A stretch of 64,000 nt of DNA, taken from assembly GCA_022749995.1 (NCBI GenBank), contig JAKIWO010000001.1, forward strand, positions 154,330 to 218,329, read 5' to 3'. This DNA is from Thermoplasmata archaeon. Lineage in GTDB: Archaea > Thermoplasmatota > Thermoplasmata > Lutacidiplasmatales > UBA184. Below are positions 1,179-18,721 of this stretch, in pieces; the stretch's first letter is position 1; each line of letters starts with the position of its first letter. The position numbers and the translations under genes are program-made. Under the pieces are notes generated by a model. That model worked only from the letters and a program-made list of their open reading frames with translations. It did no database searches and was not told the origin of the DNA.

Positions 1179-2075
1179 ATGTACTCGGATGCTCCCTCCG
1201 CCACGCTCCCTGGAACCGCCTCCTCCCCTCCCGCGCCGACGGCCGTCGCCGGTGGTGCCTCCTTGGGAGCGTACGCGCTGGCCACCGTGATCACGGTCTT
1301 CGCCGTGATCAGCCAGTACTTCCTGCCCTCGTGGCTGCCCGGCACGCGGTGGGTGTACGGCAACCTTCCGGGCGACCTTGCCATCGTCTACGGGGTGCCG
1401 ATACTCTCCTTCCTGCTGCTCGTGGGGACCGCGCCGCTCCGCCACTGGCAGGAGCGGATGGGACACGCGAGCGTCGAGGGGCTGCGTTGGTTCGGCCTCT
1501 ACTCGCTGCTCGCGCTGTTGCTGTCGTTCATCGCCCTCATCCTCTACCAGGCGCTCGACCCTGCGGCGGTCCGCCAGCTCTCCCGGAGCGTGCCGGTGGT
1601 GCAGGGAGCCGCCGGGAACCCGTGGTTCTGGATCGCCCTCTCCTTCGCGGTCGGTGCGATCGAGGAGACGATCTTTCGGGGCTGGATCTTTGGCTACTGG
1701 CTCAGCCGGTTCCCGGGCCAGTGGCAGCGCGCGGCGATCGGTTCGAGTCTGCTCTTCGCCGGAGTCCACCTGTACTACTGGGGTACGTACGGCGTGATCG
1801 CGCCGGTGCCGCTCATCACGCTCACGATGCTCGGGCTCGCGTTCTCCTGGGCCATGGCGCTCTCGGGCGGGAACCTCGTGATCGTGGCGTTGCTCCACGG
1901 AGCGTTCGATGCGACCTCCTTCTACTCCCTGGTGAACCTCGACGTGGCGCTCGCGCTCCACTACGGGCTGGTGCTCCTCGGGCTCGGGGTCGCGGCGGCG
2001 GTCGCGATCCGGCAGCGGACCCGGCCACGGGCTCCTCGCTACGCGCCCGTGCCCTTGCCACCTCCCGGATTCTAG
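1179..2075 (+). CDS. CPBP-family (CAAX/Abi) intramembrane metalloprotease
   Basis: Multi-TM protein with EETIFRGW, FAGVHL and HGAFD motifs. Confidence 0.75.
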   Translation: MYSDAPSATLPGTASSPPAPTAVAGGASLGAYALATVITVFAVISQYFLPSWLPGTRWVYGNLPGDLAIVYGVPILSFLLLVGTAPLRHWQERMGHASVEGLRWFGLYSLLALLLSFIALILYQALDPAAVRQLSRSVPVVQGAAGNPWFWIALSFAVGAIEETIFRGWIFGYWLSRFPGQWQRAAIGSSLLFAGVHLYYWGTYGVIAPVPLITLTMLGLAFSWAMALSGGNLVIVALLHGAFDATSFYSLVNLDVALALHYGLVLLGLGVAAAVAIRQRTRPRAPRYAPVPLPPPGF

Positions 2076-2152
2076 GGCACGGCGGGAGGCCCGCCGGCTC
2101 CCCGGAGGGGTCGCCGGTGAACAGTTATGGCCGGGTGTCCCTTGGCCCGCAC

Positions 2153-2593
2153 ATGAGCGACGCACCCTCGGACCAAGCGCTGCGGGAGCTGCTCGAGCGG
2201 ACACGTACGATCGCCGTGGTCGGACTCTCCGACAAGGCGGACCGGGAGTCGAACCGAGTGGCCCGGTACATGCAGGAACACGGCTACCGAGTGGTCCCGG
2301 TAAACCCGATGATCACCGAGGCGCTGGGCGAGAAGGCGTACCCCTCCCTCGGCGATATTCCCCCCGAGCTGCGGATCGACCTCGTCGACATCTTCCGCCG
2401 CCCGGAGGATGTACCCCCCGTGGTGGAGGCCGCGATCGCCCGCCAGGTGGGCACAGTCTGGATGCAACTGGGGATCGCGCATCCCGCGGCCGCGGCGAGC
2501 GCGCGGGCCGCCGGGATGACGGTGCTCGAGGATCGGTGCATCATGCTGACCCACAAGCGACTTCGGATCCCGGACCGACCCGCGAGCCGTTAA
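2153..2593 (+). CDS. CoA-binding domain protein (YccU/YneT-like)
   Basis: ATG at 2153 in frame with track ORF 1091..2593. IAVVGLSDKADRESNRVARYMQEHGYRVVPVNP is a typical CoA_binding_2 N-terminus. Confidence 0.75.
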   Translation: MSDAPSDQALRELLERTRTIAVVGLSDKADRESNRVARYMQEHGYRVVPVNPMITEALGEKAYPSLGDIPPELRIDLVDIFRRPEDVPPVVEAAIARQVGTVWMQLGIAHPAAAASARAAGMTVLEDRCIMLTHKRLRIPDRPASR

Positions 2594-2617
2594 GCCCCGG
2601 CCTCGCTGCCCCGCCGA

Positions 2618-3442
2618 ATGTCCGCGCCCGAGGCGGCCGCTCCGGCCGCGCTGCCTCACTCACGGCCGGCTCCTCCCCGTCCGGCTGCGCCTGCCCCGGC
2701 CGCCCCCGCACCCGAGCCGCCGCTGGCGGGGGAGGTGAGCGAGCACGGGTCGAGCCAACGGGCCTCGGTGCGCCTGCTCACCTGGCGAGTCCTCGGCGCG
2801 GCCAAGGTGCTCGGCAAGGTCGAGGTGGGCTCGCTGGATGTGAACGGGCTGCTCTCCATCGGGGGCGATTTGATCGGGGGCGACGCGCGTGTGCGCGGCT
2901 CGTTCAGTACCGTAGGGCAAACCCGGCTGACGGGCCGCTTGTCCGTGACCGGCCAGGCCCGATGCGCCGCCTCGATCGAGGCGGGGGAGGCTGAGTTCGA
3001 GGGCCGCGCGGAACTCTCCGCATCGTTGAAGGTCCACGGCCCGCTGGAGATCCGCGGGCAACTCTCCGTGGCCGGTGCACTCGACGCGCAGCTGCTCCGA
3101 TTCAATGGCGCCCTCGCGGTAACCGGCGCCGTCCGCGCTCGAGAGGTGGACGGCACGCTCGAGGGCGTGACGCACCTGGCGTCGCTCACGGCCGACCGGG
3201 TGCAACTGCGCCGCCCGTCGTTCCCCCCGTGGAAGCGCGGCGGGAGTTTCCGCGCCGAGCGGATCGATGCGAAGGAAGTACGGCTCGAGGCCGCCCACGT
3301 CGAGTACCTTTGCGCGCAGGAGATCCGCCTGGGACCGGACTGCCACGTGAGCCGTGCGGAGGGCACCATCGTCGAGCGCCACCGGAGCTCGGTCGTCGGA
3401 TACGAGTCCTCGAGCCCGCCGCCTCCCGGCCACTTCCGCTAG
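2618..3442 (+). CDS. Bactofilin-like / polymer-forming beta-helix protein with Pro/Ala-rich N-terminus
   Basis: Repetitive G-x-hydrophobic beta-helix pattern (VLGKVEVGSLDVNGLLSIGGDLIGGDARVRGSF...LSVTGQA...LEIRGQLSVAGAL...) resembling the CcmA/bactofilin family. Confidence 0.45.
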   Translation: MSAPEAAAPAALPHSRPAPPRPAAPAPAAPAPEPPLAGEVSEHGSSQRASVRLLTWRVLGAAKVLGKVEVGSLDVNGLLSIGGDLIGGDARVRGSFSTVGQTRLTGRLSVTGQARCAASIEAGEAEFEGRAELSASLKVHGPLEIRGQLSVAGALDAQLLRFNGALAVTGAVRAREVDGTLEGVTHLASLTADRVQLRRPSFPPWKRGGSFRAERIDAKEVRLEAAHVEYLCAQEIRLGPDCHVSRAEGTIVERHRSSVVGYESSSPPPPGHFR

Positions 3443-3516: not shown

Positions 3517-6480
3517 ATGGCCGAGGAGGCGGTCCCGACGGGGGAAGGCAGCCAGCCCCGGCTGGAGGCGCAAGTCCGCGCCTACTGGGAGCGGGAGGGC
3601 ATTCCGGCCCGGCTCGCCGCCGGGACCTCTACCGGTCCAGTGTTCCGCTTCACGGAGGGACCCCCGACCGCCAACGGAGTTCCGCACCTCGGGCACCTGG
3701 TGGCCCGCACGCTCAAGGACGTAGAGCTGCGGTATCGCCGGATGCGAGGGTACGCGATCGTGAGCCCGATGGCCGGCTGGGATTGCCACGGGCTTCCGGT
3801 CGAGCTCGAAGTGGAGAAGCGGCTCGGCCTCAAGTCGAAGGCCGAGATCGAGAGCTACGGGGTCGCGAAGTTCTGCGAAGCCTGCCGCACCGGCGCGCTC
3901 GAGGTTGCCCGGGAGTGGGAGGCGATGAGCGGCGAGCTCGGGTACTGGCTGGACTACGCGCACCCGTACTACACCATGGCGCCCGAATACATCGAGAGCG
4001 TCTGGTGGTCGCTGCGCCAGCTGTTCGACCGAGGCCTGCTCACCCCCGGCTACTACAGCCTGCCGTATTGTCCGCGGTGCGAGACCCCTCTGAGCTCCCA
4101 CGAAGTGGCCCAGGGGTACCGCGAGACGACCGACCCGTCGGTCACCGTCCGGTTTCCGCTCACCTCCGCCCCCGGCGCTCCCCGCCGCGTCCTGCTCGCG
4201 TGGACCACCACGCCGTGGACGCTGCCGGCGAACCTGCTCGTCGCTGCCCACGGGCGGCTCCCGTACGTGGGGGTACTCGAAGAGGACGGCACCGAGCTCC
4301 TCCTTGCCGAGGCCGCCCTGCCTCGCTACTTCCCCCACGGGCCAACACCGGTCCACCGCTACACTGCCCAGGAATTGGACGGGCTCACCTACGAGCCGCC
4401 GTTCGAGTTTGCCGGGCCCGGCCCCCGCCGCTACCGGGTCGTCCTCGACGACTCGGTGGAGGCGAAAGAGGGAACGGGATTCGTCCACATCGCCCCGAGC
4501 TTCGGTCCGGAGGATTACCGGATAGGGCAGAGGGAGGGGGTGGGGATGTTCGACCCGCTCGATGGACGGGGACGATTCACGCACGAGGTACCCGCGGTGG
4601 AGGGACGCTCGTTCAAGGCCGCCGACGCCGTGTTGCTCGAACTCCTCGCCGCGAACCACCGGGTGTACCTCTCCGAGACGGTCCGCCACACCTACCCGTT
4701 CTGCTGGCGCTGCCAGACACCGCTCATCTACCGGGCCCTCGACGCCTGGTTCGTCCGGACCTCGACGGCGACGGCGCGACTGCTCGCCCACAACGCCGTC
4801 GTCGACTGGCAGCCCTCGCACCTGCGCGACGGCCGGTTCGGCAACTTCCTCACCGAGGCCAAGGACTGGGCCCTCTCGCGCAACCGGTACTGGGGCACAC
4901 CCCTCCCGATCTGGAAGTGCCCGGCCGGGCACACCGTGTGCCTCGGGAGCTTCGCTGAGCTCGCCGAACGGAGCGGTGCGCCACTCCCCGTGGGATTCGA
5001 CCCCCACCGCGTGGGCGTGGACCCGATCCGGTTCCCCTGCCCGACCTGCCGCGAGGAGATGCGGCGGGAGCCGTACACCATCGACGGATGGTACGACAGC
5101 GGCGCAGCGCCGTTCGCGCAGTACCACTACCCGTTCGAGCCCGGACCGTTCGAGCCGGCGGCCCCGCTGGACTTCATCGCCGAGGGCCTCGACCAGACCC
5201 GCGGCTGGTTCTACTCGCTCCTCGTGATCTCGACGCTCCTGTTCGACCGCCCGGCCTACCGCGCGAGCCTGACCAACGGGCTGGTGCTCGACGAGCGGGG
5301 CCTCAAGATGTCGAAGTCCCGAGGCAACGTGCTCGAGCCCCGCTCGCTGCTCCAGCGGCTCGGCGCCGACTCGCTGCGGTGGTCGATTCTCCTGCACGAC
5401 TACACCGAGCCGATCCGGCTCGGCGAGGCGCGCGTGCGATCCGACGCGCAGCGCGGGATCGCCACGCTGCTCAACGTGCTCTCGTTCTACCGGGAGAACG
5501 CCGCCGCGGACCGCTTGCGACCGCCGAAGGGCCCACCGGCTCACGGCACGTTGCTCGACCGGTGGCTCGGCTCGCGCCTCGCCGACACCGGCCGCCGGGT
5601 AGGAGCCGGATTGGAGCGGCTCGACGATCGCGAGGCCGCGCTGGCCCTCCAGGAGCTGATCGGGGACCTCTCCACGTGGTACCTGCGGCGTTCCCGACCC
5701 CGATTCTGGTCGGAGGTGGACCCGGCCGACCGGCAGGCCGCGCACGAGAACCTCGCGTACGCACTGCGGCAGATCGCCCTCCTGATCGCCCCGCTCGCTC
5801 CGTTCACGGCCGAGGCAGTGTACCAGGAGGTGACCGGCGGGCGATTCGGCGATGGGTCCCCCTCGGTACACGGGGAGCCGTACCCGACGGAGCTCCTCGG
5901 GCACGACCCCGGGCTGGATCGGGCCATGGTTTCGCTGCGTGGCTGGGTCGAGGTGGGCCGGGAAATGCGCGAGCGAGCCGGGGTCAAGTCCCGCATGCCG
6001 TTGCCGGTCTGGGTCATCGAGCTCCCTTCGGAGGACCCGCTCCGCGCGCTCGGGGAAGAGGGGGAGGAGTTGCTCCGCGAGGAGCTCAACGTCCGGGAGC
6101 TGCGGTACGACCTGCCGGGCTCGGGGCCCGCGACCGCCGAAGCAGAGTGGGTCGTCCGGAGCCTACCCGGCGGGCTCACCTCCCGACTCTCCCGCACCCC
6201 CACGCCGGAGCTGCGTCGGGAGGGGTTGCTTCGGGAGGCGCTGCGTCGGCTGCAGAGCGCCCGGAAGGAGGCCCGGTTGAGGTACACGGACCGCATCCAC
6301 CTTCGGGTCTGGGCCGATGCGGGGCTGTTCGCCGTGCTCGAACCGGAGCGAGCGAGGTTGAGCGAGGAGTTGCTCGCCGACCAGCTCGAGCTGCGCGAGG
6401 GCGCTCCGCCCGAAGGGGCGCCAGGCTTGCGCTGGTCGATCGAAGGCATGGCCCTCGCGGCCCAGCTCGAGCCGGTCTAG
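3517..6480 (+). CDS. ileS: Isoleucine--tRNA ligase
   Basis: HLGH and KMSKS class I motifs, GWDCHGLPVE, FCWRCQTPLIYRA; 987 aa. Confidence 0.9.
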   Translation: MAEEAVPTGEGSQPRLEAQVRAYWEREGIPARLAAGTSTGPVFRFTEGPPTANGVPHLGHLVARTLKDVELRYRRMRGYAIVSPMAGWDCHGLPVELEVEKRLGLKSKAEIESYGVAKFCEACRTGALEVAREWEAMSGELGYWLDYAHPYYTMAPEYIESVWWSLRQLFDRGLLTPGYYSLPYCPRCETPLSSHEVAQGYRETTDPSVTVRFPLTSAPGAPRRVLLAWTTTPWTLPANLLVAAHGRLPYVGVLEEDGTELLLAEAALPRYFPHGPTPVHRYTAQELDGLTYEPPFEFAGPGPRRYRVVLDDSVEAKEGTGFVHIAPSFGPEDYRIGQREGVGMFDPLDGRGRFTHEVPAVEGRSFKAADAVLLELLAANHRVYLSETVRHTYPFCWRCQTPLIYRALDAWFVRTSTATARLLAHNAVVDWQPSHLRDGRFGNFLTEAKDWALSRNRYWGTPLPIWKCPAGHTVCLGSFAELAERSGAPLPVGFDPHRVGVDPIRFPCPTCREEMRREPYTIDGWYDSGAAPFAQYHYPFEPGPFEPAAPLDFIAEGLDQTRGWFYSLLVISTLLFDRPAYRASLTNGLVLDERGLKMSKSRGNVLEPRSLLQRLGADSLRWSILLHDYTEPIRLGEARVRSDAQRGIATLLNVLSFYRENAAADRLRPPKGPPAHGTLLDRWLGSRLADTGRRVGAGLERLDDREAALALQELIGDLSTWYLRRSRPRFWSEVDPADRQAAHENLAYALRQIALLIAPLAPFTAEAVYQEVTGGRFGDGSPSVHGEPYPTELLGHDPGLDRAMVSLRGWVEVGREMRERAGVKSRMPLPVWVIELPSEDPLRALGEEGEELLREELNVRELRYDLPGSGPATAEAEWVVRSLPGGLTSRLSRTPTPELRREGLLREALRRLQSARKEARLRYTDRIHLRVWADAGLFAVLEPERARLSEELLADQLELREGAPPEGAPGLRWSIEGMALAAQLEPV

Positions 6481-13538: not shown

Positions 13539-14348
13539 GTGGCGTTCGCGCGGCTCGAGCAAGAGGCCTGGACCGCGGCGCCGGTCGCCGCGGCCTACGC
13601 GAACGGATTCCCCTCGATGGTCGGGTTCACGGTCGAGCCGCTCCTCGAGGCGGTCGGGGCCGGAGCCGGCCGTCGGATGCTCGACCTGGCCTGCGGCCCG
13701 GGAACCGTCGCTCGGATGGCCCACCGACGAGGTGCCCGGGTGACGGCGCTCGACTTCTCCCGCAGCATGCTCCGCGCGGCAGGTGCGGCGCTGCCTGAGA
13801 TGCACGCCTGGGTCCTCGGGCGCTCCGAGCAGCTTCCGTTCCGGAACCGTTCGTTCGACGCGATCGCGTGCAACTTCGGGCTCCTGCATTTCGCGGACCC
13901 GGAGCGAGCGATCCACGAGGCCGGCCGACTGCTCGCCCCGGGCGGGCGGCTCGCCTTCACGGTCTGGGGGCAGGACGCGGTGGGGCTCCGGCTGATTCCG
14001 GAAGCACTCGAGCGGCTCGGACTGACGCCCTCCTTGCCGACGGGGCCGGGGTTCTTCGCCTACGGCGCGCCCCGAGCGTTCTCCCAGAGTTTCGAGCGGG
14101 CGGGCCTCGTCGCGCTGGCCGAACAGCCGCTCGCTGCACGCGCGCCCGTGGCGTCGGTCGACGCCTACTGGCGGATGTTTCTCGAAGGGTCGGCACGTAC
14201 CCGAGCCAGCTTGCTCGCCCTGTCGGAGGCCGATCGGGAGCGCGTGCGCGCGGAGGTGGCCGAGGGTCTCGGGCCGTATGCGAGCCCCGCCGGCCTCTCG
14301 GTGCCGGTCACGGCGGTGCTCGGCGTGGCCGGTCGACCGGCCCGGTAG
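13539..14348 (+). CDS. Class I SAM-dependent methyltransferase
   Basis: MLDLACGPGTVA motif I and a Methyltransf_11-like layout. Confidence 0.7.
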   Translation: MAFARLEQEAWTAAPVAAAYANGFPSMVGFTVEPLLEAVGAGAGRRMLDLACGPGTVARMAHRRGARVTALDFSRSMLRAAGAALPEMHAWVLGRSEQLPFRNRSFDAIACNFGLLHFADPERAIHEAGRLLAPGGRLAFTVWGQDAVGLRLIPEALERLGLTPSLPTGPGFFAYGAPRAFSQSFERAGLVALAEQPLAARAPVASVDAYWRMFLEGSARTRASLLALSEADRERVRAEVAEGLGPYASPAGLSVPVTAVLGVAGRPAR

Positions 14349-15612
14349 TCGGCGCCTCCGGGGGCGTTGCCGCCCCTTGGGTGCCTCGTCGAGCGGAGCT
14401 CGCGGCGTCCGCGAGCGACGTGCGGAGGTCCCGGTAGATCGACTCCCCTCGGCCGGTGAATCGGTATACCCGCAACCGGCGGGGCCGTCCTTGGACGTGC
14501 CGAACTTCCTGGGAGAGCACGCCGGCGGCGACCAATCGCCGCAGCACGTTGGTGACCGTGTTCTGGCTCGCCCGGAGGTGCTCGACCATGCCGCCCTGCG
14601 TGAGCTCGAACGGGGCCACGTCGTCCGGGCCGAGGAGGCCTTGGGCGCCGATGTGGAGGATCACCCGCTGCGTGAGCTGGAGCCGGTCGCTCCGGGGCGG
14701 TACCGGTAGGGCCGGGACGCCGGGTCCTGGCGGCTCCGTGCGTCGGCTCGGCCCCACCCCCATCGGCGGGGGCGGAGGAAGCCCAGGTCCGGAGATCTCC
14801 GGGACCACACCAGCTGCGGCCGATGTGGGGTGAGGCGGCGCTGAACTGTCTCCGGCGCGTTCCCCCCGCACCCGACGGTAGACCAGCAGCGCGACGGCGA
14901 TGGCTGCGGCCGCAGCCACGACCAGATACGCCGCCACCGGAAGGGATCGCAGTCCGCCGGCCGTCCCCGAGTCGGGACCTACGGACAGATTGGCGGAGGC
15001 GACACCCCAGTGGCCGGAGGAGTCGGTGACGTTCAGCACCGCCGTGAACGCACCGGTCCGGCTGTACGTGTACTCCACGTTGAGACCGCTGCCCACGCCG
15101 CCGTCGCCGAACCGCCAGGTGGCGCTCGTGTAGGTGCCGCTGCCGCCGGCGACGGTGGCGTTGAAGGTCACGGTGAGCGGCGCGCCCCCCTGGAGCGGGT
15201 GGGCGAGGAGCACCACGGTGAGCGGGCCGGCCACGGCCCCGATCGAGATGGAGCTCCCCGCCGAGCACGCTCCTTCGGAAACACCGACGTGCGCCAGGAA
15301 CAGTCCGATCGCGGCGTACCGATGCAGCGGTGTGGCCGCTCCGGCGAAACTCGAGTTCCAGTAGCTACCGTCGCCGAAGCTCCAGTTGTAGCCGGTCGGG
15401 ACTCCCGAGGAGACACTCGCATTGAAGTGCACGACGAGCGGCGTCGCTCCGGTCGAGGGCTGCGCCGAGACCGCTACGGTGAAGCCGCAGGCGCTCGGGC
15501 GGGAGATCGCGAAGGGCGCTGCCAACAGACCGGCGAGAAGCAGGAGCGAGGAGGTGGTGAGTGCGGCCAGCGGGAGCGACGCCGCGGACCGAAGGTCGTC
15601 GCCGCGGCTCAC
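14308..15612 (-). CDS. Membrane-tethered winged-helix protein with two extracellular PKD domains
   Basis: In-frame GTG at 15612 forms a GTGA overlap with the upstream stop. Signal anchor, two PKD-like units (WSFGDGS, WRFGDGG), TM LPVAAYLVVAAAAAIAVALLVY, Pro-rich linker, then wHTH LTQGGMVEHLRASQNTVTNVLRRLVAAGVLS...RLRVYRFT. Confidence 0.6.
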   Translation of the reverse strand: MSRGDDLRSAASLPLAALTTSSLLLLAGLLAAPFAISRPSACGFTVAVSAQPSTGATPLVVHFNASVSSGVPTGYNWSFGDGSYWNSSFAGAATPLHRYAAIGLFLAHVGVSEGACSAGSSISIGAVAGPLTVVLLAHPLQGGAPLTVTFNATVAGGSGTYTSATWRFGDGGVGSGLNVEYTYSRTGAFTAVLNVTDSSGHWGVASANLSVGPDSGTAGGLRSLPVAAYLVVAAAAAIAVALLVYRRVRGERAGDSSAPPHPTSAAAGVVPEISGPGLPPPPPMGVGPSRRTEPPGPGVPALPVPPRSDRLQLTQRVILHIGAQGLLGPDDVAPFELTQGGMVEHLRASQNTVTNVLRRLVAAGVLSQEVRHVQGRPRRLRVYRFTGRGESIYRDLRTSLADAASSARRGTQGAATPPEAPTTGPVDRPRRAPP

Positions 15613-16469
15613 GGCACCGGGCGCAGGGACTGGGCGGGTTCGGGCGCTCGGATCCGGTCGATGAGCTCGTTCCCCTCCCGACGCCAGCGCCGGCGCAACC
15701 CCCCGCGCACGAGGACGACCGTGACGACGGCGGCCAGGACGAACAGCCCCGCCTCGAGCAGAATCGCCCCCCAGGGATTCCCACCGCCCAGCCCGAGCAG
15801 CCCCCCCGTCGGTGCCGAGACGGCCACCGTGGGCAGCGCGCGGACGGTGCGATGCCCCGCGCCGTCGGCCACGACCAGCGAGGGCCAGTAGTTGCCGGGG
15901 GAGGAGTAGACGTGCGTCACCGGTAGCCCCGGGAGGCTCGAGCCGGTGCTGCCGTCCCCGTACAGCCACTGGATCGACAGAGGCGGGGTCTCGCCCGCGA
16001 CCGTCTCGGTGAACTGGACGGAGAACGGGGCCACGCCGGCCGTTCCGGATTCGGTGGCCCGGGCCTGGAGCGCGCTCCCGTTGGTCACGACGATGAGGAC
16101 GGTAGAGCCGACGCCGGCTCCCCGCGCGTCGGTGAGAATGCCGGTGACGCTGTAGTTGCCGGGGTTCGCGTAGAGGTGCGGGAACCGCAACGGGGTCGCG
16201 CCGTTCCAGCCGCTCACCGTGCCGTTGCAGCTCGAGGGGGGGCTGCTGTGGTCGGAGGTCGCAAAGCAGACCGAGACGGTGAACGGGGCGACGCCGGAGC
16301 TCACCGAGGCGCTGACATTCACCGGAAGCGGCGCGCCGCCGGTCTGCGGTGTGGGGATGAGCGAGAGCACGGGCGTGTCGACAGCGAACCGGCCGGCGCC
16401 GCTAACGCCCGAGTGCCCGGCCGAGGCGACGGCGGGCGCCGCGAGCGCCAGGAGCAGGAATACTCCCAC
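15609..16469 (-). CDS. PKD-domain surface protein with signal peptide and C-terminal TM anchor
   Basis: MGVFLLLALAAPAVASA signal, PKD-like units (WLYGDGS...THVYSSPGNY) and TM AILLEAGLFVLAAVVTVVLV. Confidence 0.65.
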   Translation of the reverse strand: MGVFLLLALAAPAVASAGHSGVSGAGRFAVDTPVLSLIPTPQTGGAPLPVNVSASVSSGVAPFTVSVCFATSDHSSPPSSCNGTVSGWNGATPLRFPHLYANPGNYSVTGILTDARGAGVGSTVLIVVTNGSALQARATESGTAGVAPFSVQFTETVAGETPPLSIQWLYGDGSTGSSLPGLPVTHVYSSPGNYWPSLVVADGAGHRTVRALPTVAVSAPTGGLLGLGGGNPWGAILLEAGLFVLAAVVTVVLVRGGLRRRWRREGNELIDRIRAPEPAQSLRPVP

Positions 16470-16499: not shown

Positions 16500-18623
16500 T
16501 CACCCCGGCGGGGACTCCGACGGTGGCGTGCGGGGCGGTCGTCCCCCCCGGCCGAACGCAAAGCCGAGGATGGCTCCCACCAGACCACCGAAGGCGAGCG
16601 CGAGCAGCAGGGCGACGAAGGTGGTGCCGGCCAGCAGGCCCCCGAGCATGCCGCCTTGCCCGCCGGGAGTCGCCCCGGCGCTGCCGGGTCGGATCGACTG
16701 GTTCGAGGAGCCGTTCGGGCTGCCGTTGCCGCCGCTCCCGCCGGTCACGTAGACCCAGACGCTCCCGTACCCGACCAGCACGGTCCCGTACGCGTTGGTC
16801 GTGTTGTAGACGAACGCCGTCGCTGGATACCAGCCCGCGACCGAGTAGAACGCCGAGGCCATCAGCCCGGTGGCGCTCCCGGTGCCGTTGCCGGAGCCGT
16901 TCGGCAAGCTCCAGTGCACGGCGAACGGCGGGGAGCCGCCGTCGATGTACGCCGAGAAGACCACGGCGAGCGGGCTGCTGCCGGTGACCGGGCTCGCGGC
17001 GACCACGACTGAGACCGGCGCCGGGTGCCGGGCGCTCGAGTTGTTCCCGCCGCCGGAGCCGGCCGGACCGACCGTGAGCGGCAGCTGGACGATCACACCG
17101 GTCCCGTTCGCATCCCGGAAGCCGAGCGACCAGTTGTAGCTGCCGGCGAAGGCGTAGGAGTGCTGCGTCCCGAACACGCCGGGGGTCGAGTTGAGGCTCC
17201 AGTTGGCCGCGTACCCGTCGCCGAACTGCATCAGCAGGCCGATCGGCGGCACGCCACCGCTGAAGCTGCCGTTCACGGCCATGGGGAACGGTCCCGAGGA
17301 GTTATTCAGGCGGAAGTCAATCGCGTACTGGATCGGACCCAAACTGTTGCGGACGTAGAGGCAGGTCGCGTTCGCGCACGGGAAGCTGCCCACCGTGTAG
17401 CCGCTCGAGTTCCGGCTCCCGTTCGAGCCGATCGGCAGGGTCGCGGAGGCGGAGACCACGGCCCCTGTGGACGCGACGGCCGCGATCGACCAGTTCACCT
17501 GCTGTCCCGGCGAGCCCATGGCGTAGGTGTGGGCGAAGGTGAGCGTCCGAGCGCTCCCGATGTTGGCGAAGGAGGCTCCGCCGCCGTCACCGAAATTGAT
17601 CGTGTAGTTGACCGTCCCGTTGACTCCGGTGACGTTCACCTGCCCCCAGAACGGGATTCCCGAGGGCTGGCTCTGGTTCAGGATCACCACGGCATGGATC
17701 CCGAAGCCGCCGTTGTACGCGTAGGGGTGCGCGCAGAAGACCGCCTGAGCACAGGCCGCGGCCGGCCCGCCCGACCCACCGGACCGGGAACCGTTGCCGA
17801 GGTAGCTCGGGTTGACCGACAGGCTAGAGTTCCCCCACATCCCGGCCGCGTCGTGCAGGAGCACCTGGACGGCGTAGCTGCCACCAGTGGCCGCCGAGTA
17901 CGTGTGGTCGACGCTTCCGCTCGACCCGAGCCCGAGGGTCGTGTTGAACGTGCCGCCGTCGCCGAAATCGAGCACGAGGGTGTAGTTCGGCGTGCCGCCG
18001 TAGGTGGGGCCGTACCAGAAGGTGCTCGTCCAGCTCGAATTCAGGTCCTGGTCGGTCTCGGTGACGGGGATGCCCGGCATCGAGTTCGGGACGACGGCCC
18101 GGATGGTGCCCGTGACCTGCGAGCCGTTGCCGAGGCTGTCGCTCACGAACGCCTCGAACGGGTAGAGGGCCGAGGCGTTGTAGCTCGTGGAGAGGGTGGT
18201 CGAACTGTTCGCCGTGGCGTTCCGGTTCCCGTACGACCAGCTCGAGGTATCGCCCCAGCCGACCAGGAGAGTGTAGGGGCCCGTGCCGCCCGAAAAGACC
18301 ACCGTGGCGTTCACGGCGAAGGAGTACGCGCTGGGGACGTACCAGAGTTTGGCACTGATCGTCATCGACCCGTTCGTGTGCGAAAGGGAGAGGTTGGGCG
18401 CAGGGCTACCGTCGGCGTGGACGGCCAGCCGACCGTTCCCGCCCGCGGGGGTGGCGCCGTTCGGCCGGAGCTCGTGGCCGCCCGTGAAGCTCACCGGGAG
18501 AAGTAGGAGGAGCGCCAGCACGCCGATCACCGCCCACCGTGATCCTCGGGTTCGGCGGAGAAGATCGAGGGACGGGAATCGGGAGGGTCGATAGTTCGCG
18601 TTCGAGTGGTCCGGGGCGGTCAT
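16500..18623 (-). CDS. Large PKD-repeat, sequon-rich surface protein with N- and C-terminal TM segments
   Basis: At least five F/WGDG-type repeat units (LDFGDGG, INFGDGG, MQFGDGY, VGWGDTS...), very many N-x-S/T sequons, C-terminal Gly-rich TM. Confidence 0.65.
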   Translation of the reverse strand: MTAPDHSNANYRPSRFPSLDLLRRTRGSRWAVIGVLALLLLLPVSFTGGHELRPNGATPAGGNGRLAVHADGSPAPNLSLSHTNGSMTISAKLWYVPSAYSFAVNATVVFSGGTGPYTLLVGWGDTSSWSYGNRNATANSSTTLSTSYNASALYPFEAFVSDSLGNGSQVTGTIRAVVPNSMPGIPVTETDQDLNSSWTSTFWYGPTYGGTPNYTLVLDFGDGGTFNTTLGLGSSGSVDHTYSAATGGSYAVQVLLHDAAGMWGNSSLSVNPSYLGNGSRSGGSGGPAAACAQAVFCAHPYAYNGGFGIHAVVILNQSQPSGIPFWGQVNVTGVNGTVNYTINFGDGGGASFANIGSARTLTFAHTYAMGSPGQQVNWSIAAVASTGAVVSASATLPIGSNGSRNSSGYTVGSFPCANATCLYVRNSLGPIQYAIDFRLNNSSGPFPMAVNGSFSGGVPPIGLLMQFGDGYAANWSLNSTPGVFGTQHSYAFAGSYNWSLGFRDANGTGVIVQLPLTVGPAGSGGGNNSSARHPAPVSVVVAASPVTGSSPLAVVFSAYIDGGSPPFAVHWSLPNGSGNGTGSATGLMASAFYSVAGWYPATAFVYNTTNAYGTVLVGYGSVWVYVTGGSGGNGSPNGSSNQSIRPGSAGATPGGQGGMLGGLLAGTTFVALLLALAFGGLVGAILGFAFGRGGRPPRTPPSESPPG

Positions 18624-18721
18624 CGGTCCCTTGGGCGCTCCCGGCCGCTATAAGCCTCGGCCGCACAAACGACGAACAAACGTCGGCGGCGACGTCGGCC
18701 GGTCGTTTCCGGCTCGCCCCG

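Follow-up and report, generated by a model that had tools for sequence, protein, structure and literature searches.

A predicted membrane-tethered PKD-winged-helix regulator encoded with PKD surface proteins in Thermoplasmata

To our knowledge, little is understood of how archaea perceive their surroundings, and hardly any of their membrane-bound regulators have been studied (ArnR and ArnR1). Transmembrane transcription regulators (TTRs) are common in archaea, with about 4 per genome on average, and the single-pass form is the commonest (Demey et al. 2023, PMC10269533); that census counted DNA-binding domains recognised by Pfam. In Sulfolobus acidocaldarius, ArnR and ArnR1 are membrane-bound one-component regulators that control surface-structure genes via two promoter boxes (PMC6396743). 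EarA, a euryarchaeal archaellum regulator, is reported to activate a surface-structure operon at the BRE region of the fla promoter (PMC5512572, PMC10665913).

The DNA analyzed here is a stretch of 64,000 nucleotides (the window, 64 kb) from a soil archaeon of the Thermoplasmata, in which spurious long open reading frames are plentiful in all six frames. One of its genes had been predicted to encode a protein with extracellular PKD domains joined through a transmembrane (TM) helix to a cytoplasmic winged helix (wHTH). We propose, with a probability of roughly 0.6, that this protein is a one-component regulator with type-I, single-pass membrane topology, which acts through tandem promoter boxes on the surface-protein operon to which its own gene belongs; the DNA binding and the signal are what we infer in this proposal. 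The gene and the parts of its product are as follows.

14308-15612, minus strand: gene for the PKD-PKD-TM-linker-wHTH protein, 434 aa (open reading frame, GTGA overlap, 43 homologue clusters of the same architecture)
15490-15612, minus strand: signal peptide or anchor, residues 1-41, with the hydrophobic core LPLAALTTSSLLLLAGLLAAPFA (hydropathy, AF2, homologues)
15229-15483, minus strand: PKD domain 1, residues 44-128, extracellular (Pfam PKD and PKD_4; AF2 pLDDT >95)
14974-15228, minus strand: PKD domain 2, residues 129-213, extracellular (best Pfam stretch 144-205; AF2)
14878-14943, minus strand: single TM helix LPVAAYLVVAAAAAIAVALLVY, residues 224-245, followed by RRVRGER (hydropathy 2.73; AF2; charge bias)
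14698-14877, minus strand: cytoplasmic Pro-rich disordered linker, residues 246-305, about 60 aa (AF2, alignment)
14377-14697, minus strand: PadR/MarR-like wHTH, residues 306-412, cytoplasmic (profile, AF2, Foldseek, Pfam)

The 434-aa product is read from the minus strand, as had been proposed, and the opposite (plus) strand of the same interval is riddled with stops. The letters GTGA hold both its GTG start (15612-15610) and the TGA stop (15611-15609) of the 286-aa PKD gene upstream, so that the two overlap; the coordinates bear out the overlap described in the original prediction, and all strings quoted there were found in the translation. A longer frame of 553 aa is present, the extra part of which lies inside the upstream gene. 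In the alignment, the N-termini of the homologues fall at the GTG position and the sequences align from the signal peptide onward, which argues against a start downstream of the PKD region. With long spurious frames so abundant in the window, two genes or one such frame in DNA of 72% G+C might have been misread as a single fusion. The chance of such an annotation artefact is, however, close to nil: the same unbroken architecture occurs in 43 clusters from many assemblies and, uninterrupted, in 25 species-representative genomes, both ends of the protein are conserved among homologues, and AF2 is confident for the PKD and wHTH parts alike. Judged by recurrence, conserved ends and the structure model, the artefact is effectively refuted already.

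The predicted signal anchor, two PKD units, single TM helix and Pro-rich linker were all confirmed by Pfam, hydropathy and AF2. The full-length AF2 model consists of two beta-sandwiches, the TM helix, a disordered stretch at 254-305 and the wHTH at 307-412 with a pLDDT of 93-97. In the signal region it has a low-confidence helix at 17-28, and an n-region and h-region are common to the homologues. PKD domain 1 contains WSFGDGS (residues 77-83) and PKD domain 2 contains WRFGDGG (residues 166-172). Assignment to the PKD family follows from Pfam scores above the curated cut-offs (PKD_4, 72.4 bits against 27; PKD, 65 bits against 23.5; two stretches each) together with two all-beta sandwiches of pLDDT >95. 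The AF2 helix over the TM segment spans residues 226-250, and the position of the segment is conserved across 42 homologues, so that the protein has the TM region, at least one, by which a TTR is defined. The linker has a pLDDT of <50 over most of 254-305 and varies in length and sequence among homologues. PKD domain 1 carries N-glycosylation sequons and a co-varying pair of cysteines, Cys42 and Cys116. We considered the N-terminal Cys as part of a lipobox and rejected this, and a disulfide is the better reading because the residue co-varies with the second Cys in PKD domain 1 and the positions -3 to -1 fit a lipobox poorly.

By four independent lines of evidence, the PKD domains lie outside the cell and the wHTH lies in the cytoplasm. 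Among 42 homologues, N-x-S/T sequons occurred at 2.35 per 100 aa in the N-terminal part versus 0.11 in the C-terminal part, and the net charge was -0.43 before the TM helix and +2.88 after it. Both cysteines of the Cys42/Cys116 pair were kept in 26 sequences and both were lost in 9, with a single Cys left in 3. Finally, short family members consist only of an N-terminal TM helix, then Arg/Lys, the linker and the wHTH. Sequon density, charge and the Cys pair thus put the DNA-binding domain, by indirect evidence, on the cytoplasmic side, as in TTRs, and with the short forms they speak against a wHTH outside the cell. We regard the architecture and topology (PKD domains out, wHTH in) as almost certain. 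Insertion via the N-terminal signal sequence, with the two PKD domains, predicted to be glycosylated, facing outward, is strongly supported, and there is equally strong support for a TM helix and flexible Pro-rich linker that hold the PadR/MarR-like winged helix in the cytoplasm. The predicted placement of a DNA-binding-type domain at the membrane together with exposed PKD domains accordingly finds support both in the topology statistics and in the profile and fold of the wHTH.

The wHTH comprises H1 (307-323), H2 (339-346), a recognition helix (350-362) within the string SQNTVTNVLRRLVAAGVL (349-366), a beta-wing (366-385) with the string RHVQGRPRRLRVYRFT (371-386) and a C-terminal helix (387-412), and has a net charge of +8. 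Modeled alone, it was confidently folded by AF2 (pLDDT 95.4, pTM 0.86), in accord with the winged helix predicted at the C-terminus. Pfam searches with the single protein gave HTH matches below cut-off (HTH_Crp_2, E 0.011; PadR, 0.038; MarR_2, 0.044), as did NCBIfam, and the PadR gathering cut-off of 27 (PF03551) was reached neither by the full protein (14.4 bits) nor by the isolated domain (18.4 bits). With single-sequence profiles being sub-threshold, the assignment was settled by the family profile and the structure model. Against the PDB, the family profile matched the PadR-like protein Rv3488 (E 6e-6) and then AdcR, SlyA and MarR proteins, and Pfam PadR was matched by 35 of 40 family members (best E, 8e-8). 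The HMM assignment of this region thus stands for the family profile and for most members, whereas this sequence alone stays below the Pfam cut-offs; a C-terminal region failing all HTH profiles was not what we found.

The best Foldseek matches were 5h20 and Rv3488 (E 5e-4), and all the leading ones were PadR/MarR regulators; a MepR-DNA complex was matched with a TM of 0.70. Short PadR proteins were the best fold matches (TM 0.54-0.62), the model consisting of three helices, a beta-wing and one long C-terminal helix. The MarR-like wHTH of the original prediction is supported in that its nearest relatives by profile and fold are PadR/MarR regulators. The protein does not belong to the MarR family proper (PF01047 or PF12802), whose members have about 140 aa and a dimer interface formed around the wHTH by N- and C-terminal helices: here the conserved domain measures about 95-105 aa, its flanks are disordered and the matches lie below cut-off. 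The predicted DNA-binding domain of a TTR is nevertheless found here by the family profile, by Foldseek and by the PadR matches of the members.

From these relationships and the structure model, the wHTH domain probably binds DNA and regulates transcription. Winged helices may also mediate protein-protein contacts, and RTP, a replication terminator protein, and a centromere-binding protein of a plasmid are among the Foldseek matches. The domain might then be a non-specific DNA-membrane anchor, or an adaptor coupling surface proteins to a cytoplasmic partner, and the short forms without a sensor would fit a structural tether of this kind. We consider such a role improbable: by sequence and by fold, the domain's nearest relatives all recognise specific DNA sequences, most of them as transcription regulators; in the homologue alignment, no part of the protein is better conserved than the wHTH, with the invariant residues mostly in the recognition helix and wing (Q350, N355, R359, H372, R378 and R379); the same domain is joined to classic regulator partners, e.g. 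STAND ATPase-TPR proteins; and a private promoter motif, described below, travels with the gene.

A search for the same domain architecture, as the original prediction had suggested, found it to recur in 43 homologue clusters at 90% identity, well beyond what chance would produce. The wHTH domain itself has 604 representatives at 50% identity and was found in 206 of 401 genomes of the phylum; it is also fused to AAA_16/TPR STAND proteins, TerB-like repeats and Kelch-PKD-TM ectodomains. By its varied fusions and its spread, the domain is best described as an output module. Representatives of 120-170 aa with linker and wHTH only exist in databases, many of which may be gene-call fragments, and the carrier genomes hold further wHTH-family proteins, e.g. 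a STAND/TPR-wHTH protein (G000:C89) and others beside the cassettes L002 and L016. In the literature searched, no description of the PKD-TM-wHTH family was found, and the term PKD was not found in the text and supplements of the TTR census (PMC10269533), two of the supplements being covered in part. Because the wHTH scores below the Pfam cut-offs, the family was probably missed by that Pfam-based census, and the number of archaeal transmembrane regulators is therefore likely to be underestimated. What is new here is the PKD-TM-wHTH architecture, the family and the candidate operator; membrane-tethered regulation itself is already known.

The gene lies downstream of two genes for surface proteins, with promoter elements ahead of the first, as follows.

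15609-16469, minus strand: upstream cassette gene for a 286-aa type-I membrane protein that carries two PKD domains and is anchored by a C-terminal TM segment (Pfam, C-terminal anchor)
16500-18623, minus strand: first cassette gene, 707-aa surface protein with PKD-like repeats and a C-terminal TM anchor (Pfam PKD_4, anchor)
18648-18654, minus strand: TATA-like box CTTATAG (same distance in the related loci L001, L003, L015, L023 and L041)
18665-18682, minus strand: candidate operator CGTTTGT-tcgt-CGTTTGT, a tandem direct repeat with an 11-bp period (comparison with related cassettes)

The regulator ectodomain had been thought to be related to its neighbours, and the 286-aa product is indeed a paralogue of it (33% identity, E 1e-10). 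The 707-aa protein contains 35 N-x-S/T sequons, and orthologues of its gene occupy the same cassette position at L001, L003 and L015. Among the Thermoplasmata loci examined, the gene for the PKD-TM-wHTH form is nearly always the last in the cassette, and it is directly preceded by a same-strand gene for a PKD-rich, membrane-anchored surface protein at 35 of 36 loci; the one short form examined likewise follows a gene for an anchored PKD surface protein. There is thus strong support for the regulator gene as the last, translationally coupled gene of a three-gene cassette, and for the other two products as membrane-anchored PKD surface proteins, which are predicted glycoproteins. An adjoining MoxR/DUF58/DUF4129 module was considered as part of the conserved unit and rejected, because its synteny is confined to L001 and it is missing from the surroundings of the cassette in L002, L003, L015, L016, L017 and L018.

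A surface signal could also act by regulated proteolysis, with cleavage in or near the TM helix or linker freeing the wHTH to act and the tethered form being inactive. Notch-like or RIP-type signalling and CadC processing are parallels. CadC is reported to be activated by cleavage (PMC11484849), and apart from this precedent, the long, disordered and poorly conserved linker would be an accessible protease substrate, and representatives with linker and wHTH only do occur, even if many are perhaps gene-call fragments. We nevertheless judge regulated proteolysis to be quite unlikely, given that no protease gene is conserved in the cassette among the loci compared and that a linker of about 60-100 aa is long enough for tethered DNA binding, as in ToxR, CadC and ArnR. 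Furthermore, the ectodomain-less short forms keep the tether, which suggests that the tether itself matters.

The 707-aa gene has its ATG 24 nt downstream of the TATA-like box, so its transcript has either a very short leader or none at all. The candidate operator ends 10 nt upstream of the TATA box, and the promoters of related cassettes have equivalent tandem boxes of the general form CGT(A/T)T(C/G)T, with an 11-bp period, at a constant spacing from the TATA box. The motif patterns were originally derived by visual inspection of a small number of promoters; only the subsequent genome-wide counts are free of bias. In 21 carrier genomes, the strict 19-mer GCGTATCY-N3-GCGTATCT gave 10 matches, 7 of them exact, versus 1 control match; nine of the ten lay at a cassette promoter and the tenth at the promoter of another secreted propeller glycoprotein gene. 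In the related carrier genomes, the strict motif thus occurs essentially once per genome, at the cassette promoter. Among 401 other Thermoplasmata-phylum (Thermoplasmatota) genomes, we found no exact and 16 one-mismatch matches versus 11 control matches, which is background; most genomes of this sample are without the PKD-type form and many have soluble wHTH forms.

The window's own family (f1) lacks the strict majority motif and has boxes of a variant form; the case for the site in the window is accordingly made by its position, its tandem geometry and the orthologue in L001. Its boxes, CGTTTGT, are a variant of the majority CGTATCT with a close match in L001 only. CGTTTGT occurs three times in the 64 kb, which equals the chance expectation, and two of the three form the tandem pair at 18.67 kb. 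A relaxed tandem pattern gave 3 matches in the 1.6-Mb genome, of which only the cassette match has a TATA box. The single 10-mer CGTCGTWTST occurs once in the genome, and as about 4 occurrences are expected by chance, the uniqueness of this short word alone proves nothing. The target promoters originally suggested lay near 18.65 kb and 24.3 kb; the candidate operator is found near the former, whereas no such site was found near 24.3 kb when the box was sought there and elsewhere in the window. A co-variation of recognition helix and box (QNTV with CGTTTGT or CGTTTCC; QNS/AL with CGTATCT) was also considered and is not counted as evidence because only two lineages differ.

It is about an even chance that the tandem boxes are the operator of this regulator; the claim rests on co-localisation and co-occurrence, and another factor could bind them. 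In the latter case, the protein would be a genuine tethered regulator whose own targets lie elsewhere or at another site in the promoter. About seven cassettes are without recognisable boxes (L002, L011, L018, L026, L032, L042 and L043), the carrier genomes encode other wHTH-family proteins that might bind, and PadR/MarR proteins usually bind palindromes as symmetric dimers, direct repeats being unusual for them. Binding by a different factor is still unlikely in our view, since the strict motif is essentially unique per genome and sits at the promoter of the regulator's own operon, and since it is at background in the 401 genomes. In addition, lineages in which the rest of the protein is only about 40% identical show hardly any variation in either the recognition helix (QN[SAT][LV]TNVLRRL) or the box.

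Under the preferred reading of a tethered, autoregulating protein, the winged helix would bind the 11-bp-spaced boxes just upstream of BRE/TATA (window 18682-18665), and the bound regulator would control transcription of the cassette, its own gene included. A site just upstream of BRE/TATA is typical of archaeal activators, and we tentatively suggest that the regulator acts as one. The input would be the state of the cell surface, read by PKD-PKD contacts with the co-encoded surface proteins, or alternatively a ligand or contact bound by those proteins. A more speculative, rather doubtful extension is a private outside-in circuit in Lutacidiplasmatales-like Thermoplasmata, in which a surface protein family would report on itself. 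The PKD domains of the regulator would contact the surface glycoproteins of its own cassette, either on the same cell or on an adjacent one, and the occupancy of these contacts would set the head-to-tail seating of two tethered winged helices on the boxes. Synthesis of the surface coat could then be tuned directly from the membrane, without a kinase or second messenger, and in the Kelch-PKD or ectodomain-less variants, the same device would be connected to different surface proteins.

[quoted passage not shown] Through it, the expression of surface-protein genes would respond to the state of a glycoprotein cell surface. The predicted operator opens this hypothesis to direct tests in vitro that need no culture of the organism, only a 60-bp probe and the soluble domain of about 130 aa.

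Like the TTRs, this protein is a one-component regulator that combines a TM region with a DNA-binding domain, and an influence on transcription from the membrane is predicted here. It differs from the TTRs surveyed in the census (PMC10269533) by an N-terminal sensor that a signal peptide exports and by a C-terminal DNA-binding domain. Nor does it have the architecture of ArnR, in which an N-terminal HTH is followed by a HAMP-like domain, a cytoplasmic sensor and two C-terminal TM helices, without an extracellular domain (PMC6396743); ArnR also belongs to another phylum and has an HTH of another family.

ToxR/ToxS, TcpP/TcpH and CadC of Vibrio and E. coli are likewise bitopic, with an extracytoplasmic sensor and a flexible linker to a cytoplasmic winged helix. 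ToxR-like receptors bind direct-repeat-type sites near the promoter while tethered. Each of them works with a co-transcribed single-pass partner protein (see also PMC7496328, PMC5430869). The original likening to ToxR did not hold at the level of family: Pfam gave no match to Trans_reg_C in the full protein or in any of 40 domain sequences, and the wHTH is C-terminal and PadR/MarR-like. ToxR has its N-terminus inside, with an OmpR/PhoB-type Trans_reg_C, whereas this protein has its C-terminus inside. Because its wHTH is C-terminal, the topology is reversed relative to the N-in/C-out arrangement of ToxR, the signal peptide and PKD sensor being N-terminal and outside. The promoter is an archaeal BRE/TATA promoter rather than the sigma-70 promoter of ToxR-like receptors, and there is no sequence relationship.

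The best profile and fold matches are the short PadR proteins (Rv3488 of M. tuberculosis, 5zhc/5zi8; LmrR) and the MarR proteins MepR, SlyA and AdcR, which share with this protein the wHTH, the long beta-wing and the single C-terminal helix. These relatives are small soluble proteins that stand alone as dimers and have palindromes and small ligands as their binding targets, whereas the wHTH described here is the C-terminal module of a membrane protein, is 15-33% identical to them and has a direct repeat as its candidate site. EarA, which binds repeated short boxes upstream of BRE, is soluble and unrelated to this protein in sequence, and its likeness lies in promoter geometry only.

The regulator gene of the original prediction was confirmed and lies on the minus strand, with the frame, the GTGA overlap and every quoted peptide string recovered at the expected place. 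In the overlap, the GTG start shares bases with the TGA that ends the preceding gene (286 aa); the plus-strand frame over the same interval was riddled with stops. A longer frame of 553 aa was rejected as the start of the regulator, because its additional stretch falls within the upstream gene and the homologues begin at the GTG position. In the window, three minus-strand genes packed closely together form the cassette, and the regulator gene comes last.

Cassette gene 1, minus strand: protein of 707 aa, C-terminally anchored, with PKD-like repeats and 35 sequons
Cassette gene 2, minus strand: protein of 286 aa, likewise C-terminally anchored, with two PKD domains
Cassette gene 3, 14308–15612, minus strand: regulator, 434 codons

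The regulator ectodomain has a paralogue in the 286-aa protein (33% identity, E 1e-10). A class-I SAM methyltransferase gene (13539–14348, plus strand) is convergent with the regulator gene, the 3′ ends overlapping by about 40 nt, and this neighbour is also retained in the homologous locus L001.

In Pfam, the regulator contained two PKD domains well above the cut-off, and its C-terminal part gave sub-threshold matches only among winged-helix families (HTH_Crp_2, PadR and MarR_2); NCBIfam gave a weak match to the PadR-like Rv3488 family. The full-length protein was modeled by AlphaFold2 with a 42-sequence alignment, which yielded two confident beta-sandwich domains (residues 44–213), a TM helix (226–250), a disordered stretch (254–305) and a confident C-terminal domain (307–412, pLDDT 93–97) with the order helix, helix, recognition helix, beta-hairpin wing and long final helix. 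The isolated 95-residue domain was modeled with a pLDDT of 95.4 and a pTM of 0.86. A profile built from 40 family domains and run against the PDB matched Rv3488 (E 6e-6), followed by AdcR, SlyA and further MarR proteins, and Pfam PadR was matched by 35 of the 40 members (best E 8e-8). Foldseek ranked the PadR-like proteins 5h20 and Rv3488 at the top (E 5e-4), followed by DNA-bound MarR-family proteins (MepR, TM 0.70). The domain contains 17 Arg/Lys against 9 Asp/Glu; it is the best-conserved region of the full-length alignment, in which nearly all invariant residues fall in the recognition helix and the wing. On the strength of the models, the profile and Foldseek matches, the charge and this conservation, the C-terminal domain, originally called MarR/TrmB-like, is a PadR/MarR-like winged helix (wHTH) of the DNA-binding kind, although the single sequence stays below Pfam cut-offs.

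The topology was judged from four independent indicators over 42 homologues. Per 100 residues, N-x-S/T sequons numbered 2.35 ahead of the TM helix and 0.11 beyond it (210 versus 8 in all), and the mean net charge was −0.43 in the 15 residues before the helix and +2.88 in the 15 after it. Cys42 and Cys116 of the first PKD domain were both present in 26 sequences, both absent in 9 and found singly in only 3, a pattern such as a disulfide in an exported domain would be expected to leave. Furthermore, many family members are just 180–260 aa long and consist of an extreme N-terminal TM helix, immediate Arg/Lys residues, a Pro-rich linker and the wHTH, a layout in which the wHTH can only be inside. 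These indicators bear out the proposed surface-exposed sensor, and the PKD domains are predicted to lie outside and the wHTH in the cytoplasm.

A search with the C-terminal 140 residues of the regulator returned 43 clusters of 350–450 aa, all but one with precomputed PKD domains; the named clusters were all from Thermoplasmata metagenome-assembled genomes, and a JGI automatic name was already present ('PKD repeat protein/DNA-binding MarR family transcriptional regulator'). When the domain by itself was searched exhaustively, 604 representatives at 50% identity were obtained, and 358 of these had E values below 1e-10. The wHTH domain is modular: its commonest architecture is PKD-PKD-TM-wHTH, a short form (TM-linker-wHTH) is without the ectodomain, and soluble AAA_16/TPR(MalT-like)-wHTH proteins likewise exist. 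One 886-aa Kelch-PKD-TM-wHTH protein was found (P0181, locus L065, 5001–7661), a Rosetta-stone variant in which a Kelch beta-propeller and PKD ectodomain is joined through the TM helix to the wHTH; in L017 a separate Kelch-PKD gene stands ahead of a PKD-TM-wHTH gene. In other parts of the phylum, soluble proteins begin with the wHTH and continue with TerB-like repeats or a P-loop ATPase. Such proteins, one to twelve copies per genome, were seen in lower-GC Thermoplasmatota with TerB-like parts (L007 and L013, about 330–355 aa, repeated 'DG.IT.DE' units) or an Orc/Arch_ATPase-like P-loop domain (L008, L009 and L014).

Among 401 sampled Thermoplasmatota genomes, 206 contained the wHTH domain at E 1e-8 or better, and PKD-type matches (below about E 1e-24) were limited to the window's own family. 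Carriers of the PKD form among species-representative genomes include 'Candidatus Lutacidiplasma silvani', and the lineage is thus the soil Lutacidiplasmatales/TMEG group or close to it (PMC9287336). The window's genome has one further wHTH copy (contig 89, 31497–31757, minus strand, E 2e-11), which forms the C-terminal end of a soluble protein, at least 600 aa long, with helical repeats of TPR/MalT-like type (L006, 1459–3261, minus strand). Proteins related to it elsewhere, about 990 aa long, are of the AAA_16-TPR-wHTH STAND type; an AAA_16/TPR STAND gene adjoins the PKD-TM-wHTH gene in L002 and L016, with a wHTH detected in the former. Genome G398, of the same family, carries three paralogous PKD-TM-wHTH genes (L010, L011 and L012), each after its own PKD-rich gene and with diverging wHTH domains (E 1e-25 to 5e-46), a hint that a single cell may run several such circuits in parallel.

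The gene order of the cassette was scanned in 36 loci with HMMs from the family alignment. A PKD gene with one to seven repeats lay immediately upstream of the regulator gene in 35 of the 36, on the same strand and often overlapping it. In one short form examined, the preceding gene encoded an anchored, PKD-containing surface protein of 829 aa. The MoxR/DUF58/DUF4129 module upstream in the window was discarded as part of the conserved unit, because L001, the closest relative, was the only locus to share it in synteny. The protein's architecture and topology, its DNA-binding-type fold and its conserved association with anchored PKD surface-protein genes are shown or have strong support.

Ahead of the 707-aa gene lies a 98-nt gap that holds CTTATAG 24 nt before the ATG, probably a TATA box positioned for a leaderless or short-leader transcript.

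18682–18665: candidate operator CGTTTGT-tcgt-CGTTTGT, a direct repeat with an 11-bp period, 10 nt upstream of the TATA box
18648–18654: TATA box CTTATAG

Related cassettes share this arrangement. The L001 promoter has CGTTTTA-N4-CGTTTCC, 10 nt and CTTATAA, and L003, L023 and L041 have a degenerate first box (CGTTTTC, CGTGTCT or CGTCTCT)-N4-CGTATCT, then CTTATA. More distant two-gene cassettes (L016, L027, L028, L031, L033–L036, L038 and L039, some with one mismatch) carry a TATA-like box preceded by the sharper GCGTATCY-N3-GCGTATCT, and variants occur in L015, L017, L024, L025, L029, L037 and L040; about seven cassettes are without a recognizable box. In L016 and L040 a second motif copy precedes another PKD-rich gene adjoining the regulator. 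Further inverted copies lie upstream of the tandem pair in L040 (about 4960–5030, e.g. GGATACGCCGGCGATACGCC) and L039 (about 4800), and another single box at position 111 of L040 precedes an 866-aa gene with six PKD repeats. The long upstream frame of the first cassette gene is closed by TAA/TAG within the TATA box in the window, L001, L015, L024 and L041, so that in this lineage of 72% G+C the start of a stop-to-stop frame can mark a promoter.

Support for the element came from an unbiased count: with one mismatch allowed, the 21 carrier genomes (about 2 Mb each) gave 10 matches to the strict 19-mer, 7 of them exact, whereas the reversed control matched once. Nine matches lay at the promoter of a regulator-encoding cassette, and in eight of those genomes this was the sole match. 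The tenth belonged to the promoter of a secreted glycoprotein gene (NHL/YNCE-type beta-propeller), suggesting that the regulon can include other surface proteins. This box, the only extra strict one in G405, is at L053 1501–1519, ahead of a TTCAATAG box and the gene (1560–3017), whose product is sequon-rich. Across the 401 genomes of the phylum, 16 matches, all mismatched and none exact, were at background (11 for the control). Between lineages, the rest of the protein is about 40% identical, yet the recognition helix QN[SAT][LV]TNVLRRL hardly varies, and nor does the box. Following the reasoning customary in comparative regulon inference, the tandem element would be the operator of the regulator encoded at the same locus. 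The existence of a private promoter element that repeats after one helical turn, immediately upstream of the necessary BRE position, is itself shown or has strong support.

We propose that two tethered winged helices would bind the two boxes in parallel on one DNA face, an arrangement that would suit proteins suspended from a shared membrane and is reminiscent of the direct repeats bound by ToxR-type regulators. Archaeal activators usually bind upstream of the BRE/TATA; the candidate site has this position, and positive autoregulation of the cassette would therefore be the likelier sign. Input would come via the PKD ectodomain; since this is a copy of the neighboring surface protein, contact with the co-encoded proteins or their ligands is suggested. 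In forms without the ectodomain, contact would need the TM helices. Proteolytic release of the wHTH is a possible variant of the tethered mechanism.

The interpretation as a membrane-tethered PKD-wHTH regulator was thus supported, with two corrections. The comparison with ToxR holds for the way of working and not for kinship, because the regulator lacks a Trans_reg_C domain and has the opposite orientation. Second, the PKD-wHTH form was indeed not described in the literature searched, but membrane-tethered regulators as such are already known in archaea: the regulator, having a TM region and a DNA-binding domain, satisfies the operational definition of a transmembrane transcription regulator (TTR), and TTRs are reported to be widespread there (PMC10269533). 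'PKD' is absent from the text of that TTR census and from the searched part of its supplements (PMC10269533), and a literature search on PKD, Thermoplasmata and regulator gave nothing relevant. ArnR/ArnR1, the only archaeal membrane-bound regulators characterized biochemically (PMC6396743), differ from it in architecture, and its kinship with PadR/MarR proteins is at the superfamily level only. What is new, as far as the literature searched goes, is a large, lineage-specific type-I 'receptor-wHTH' family, together with a concrete candidate operator at the regulator's own surface-protein operon.
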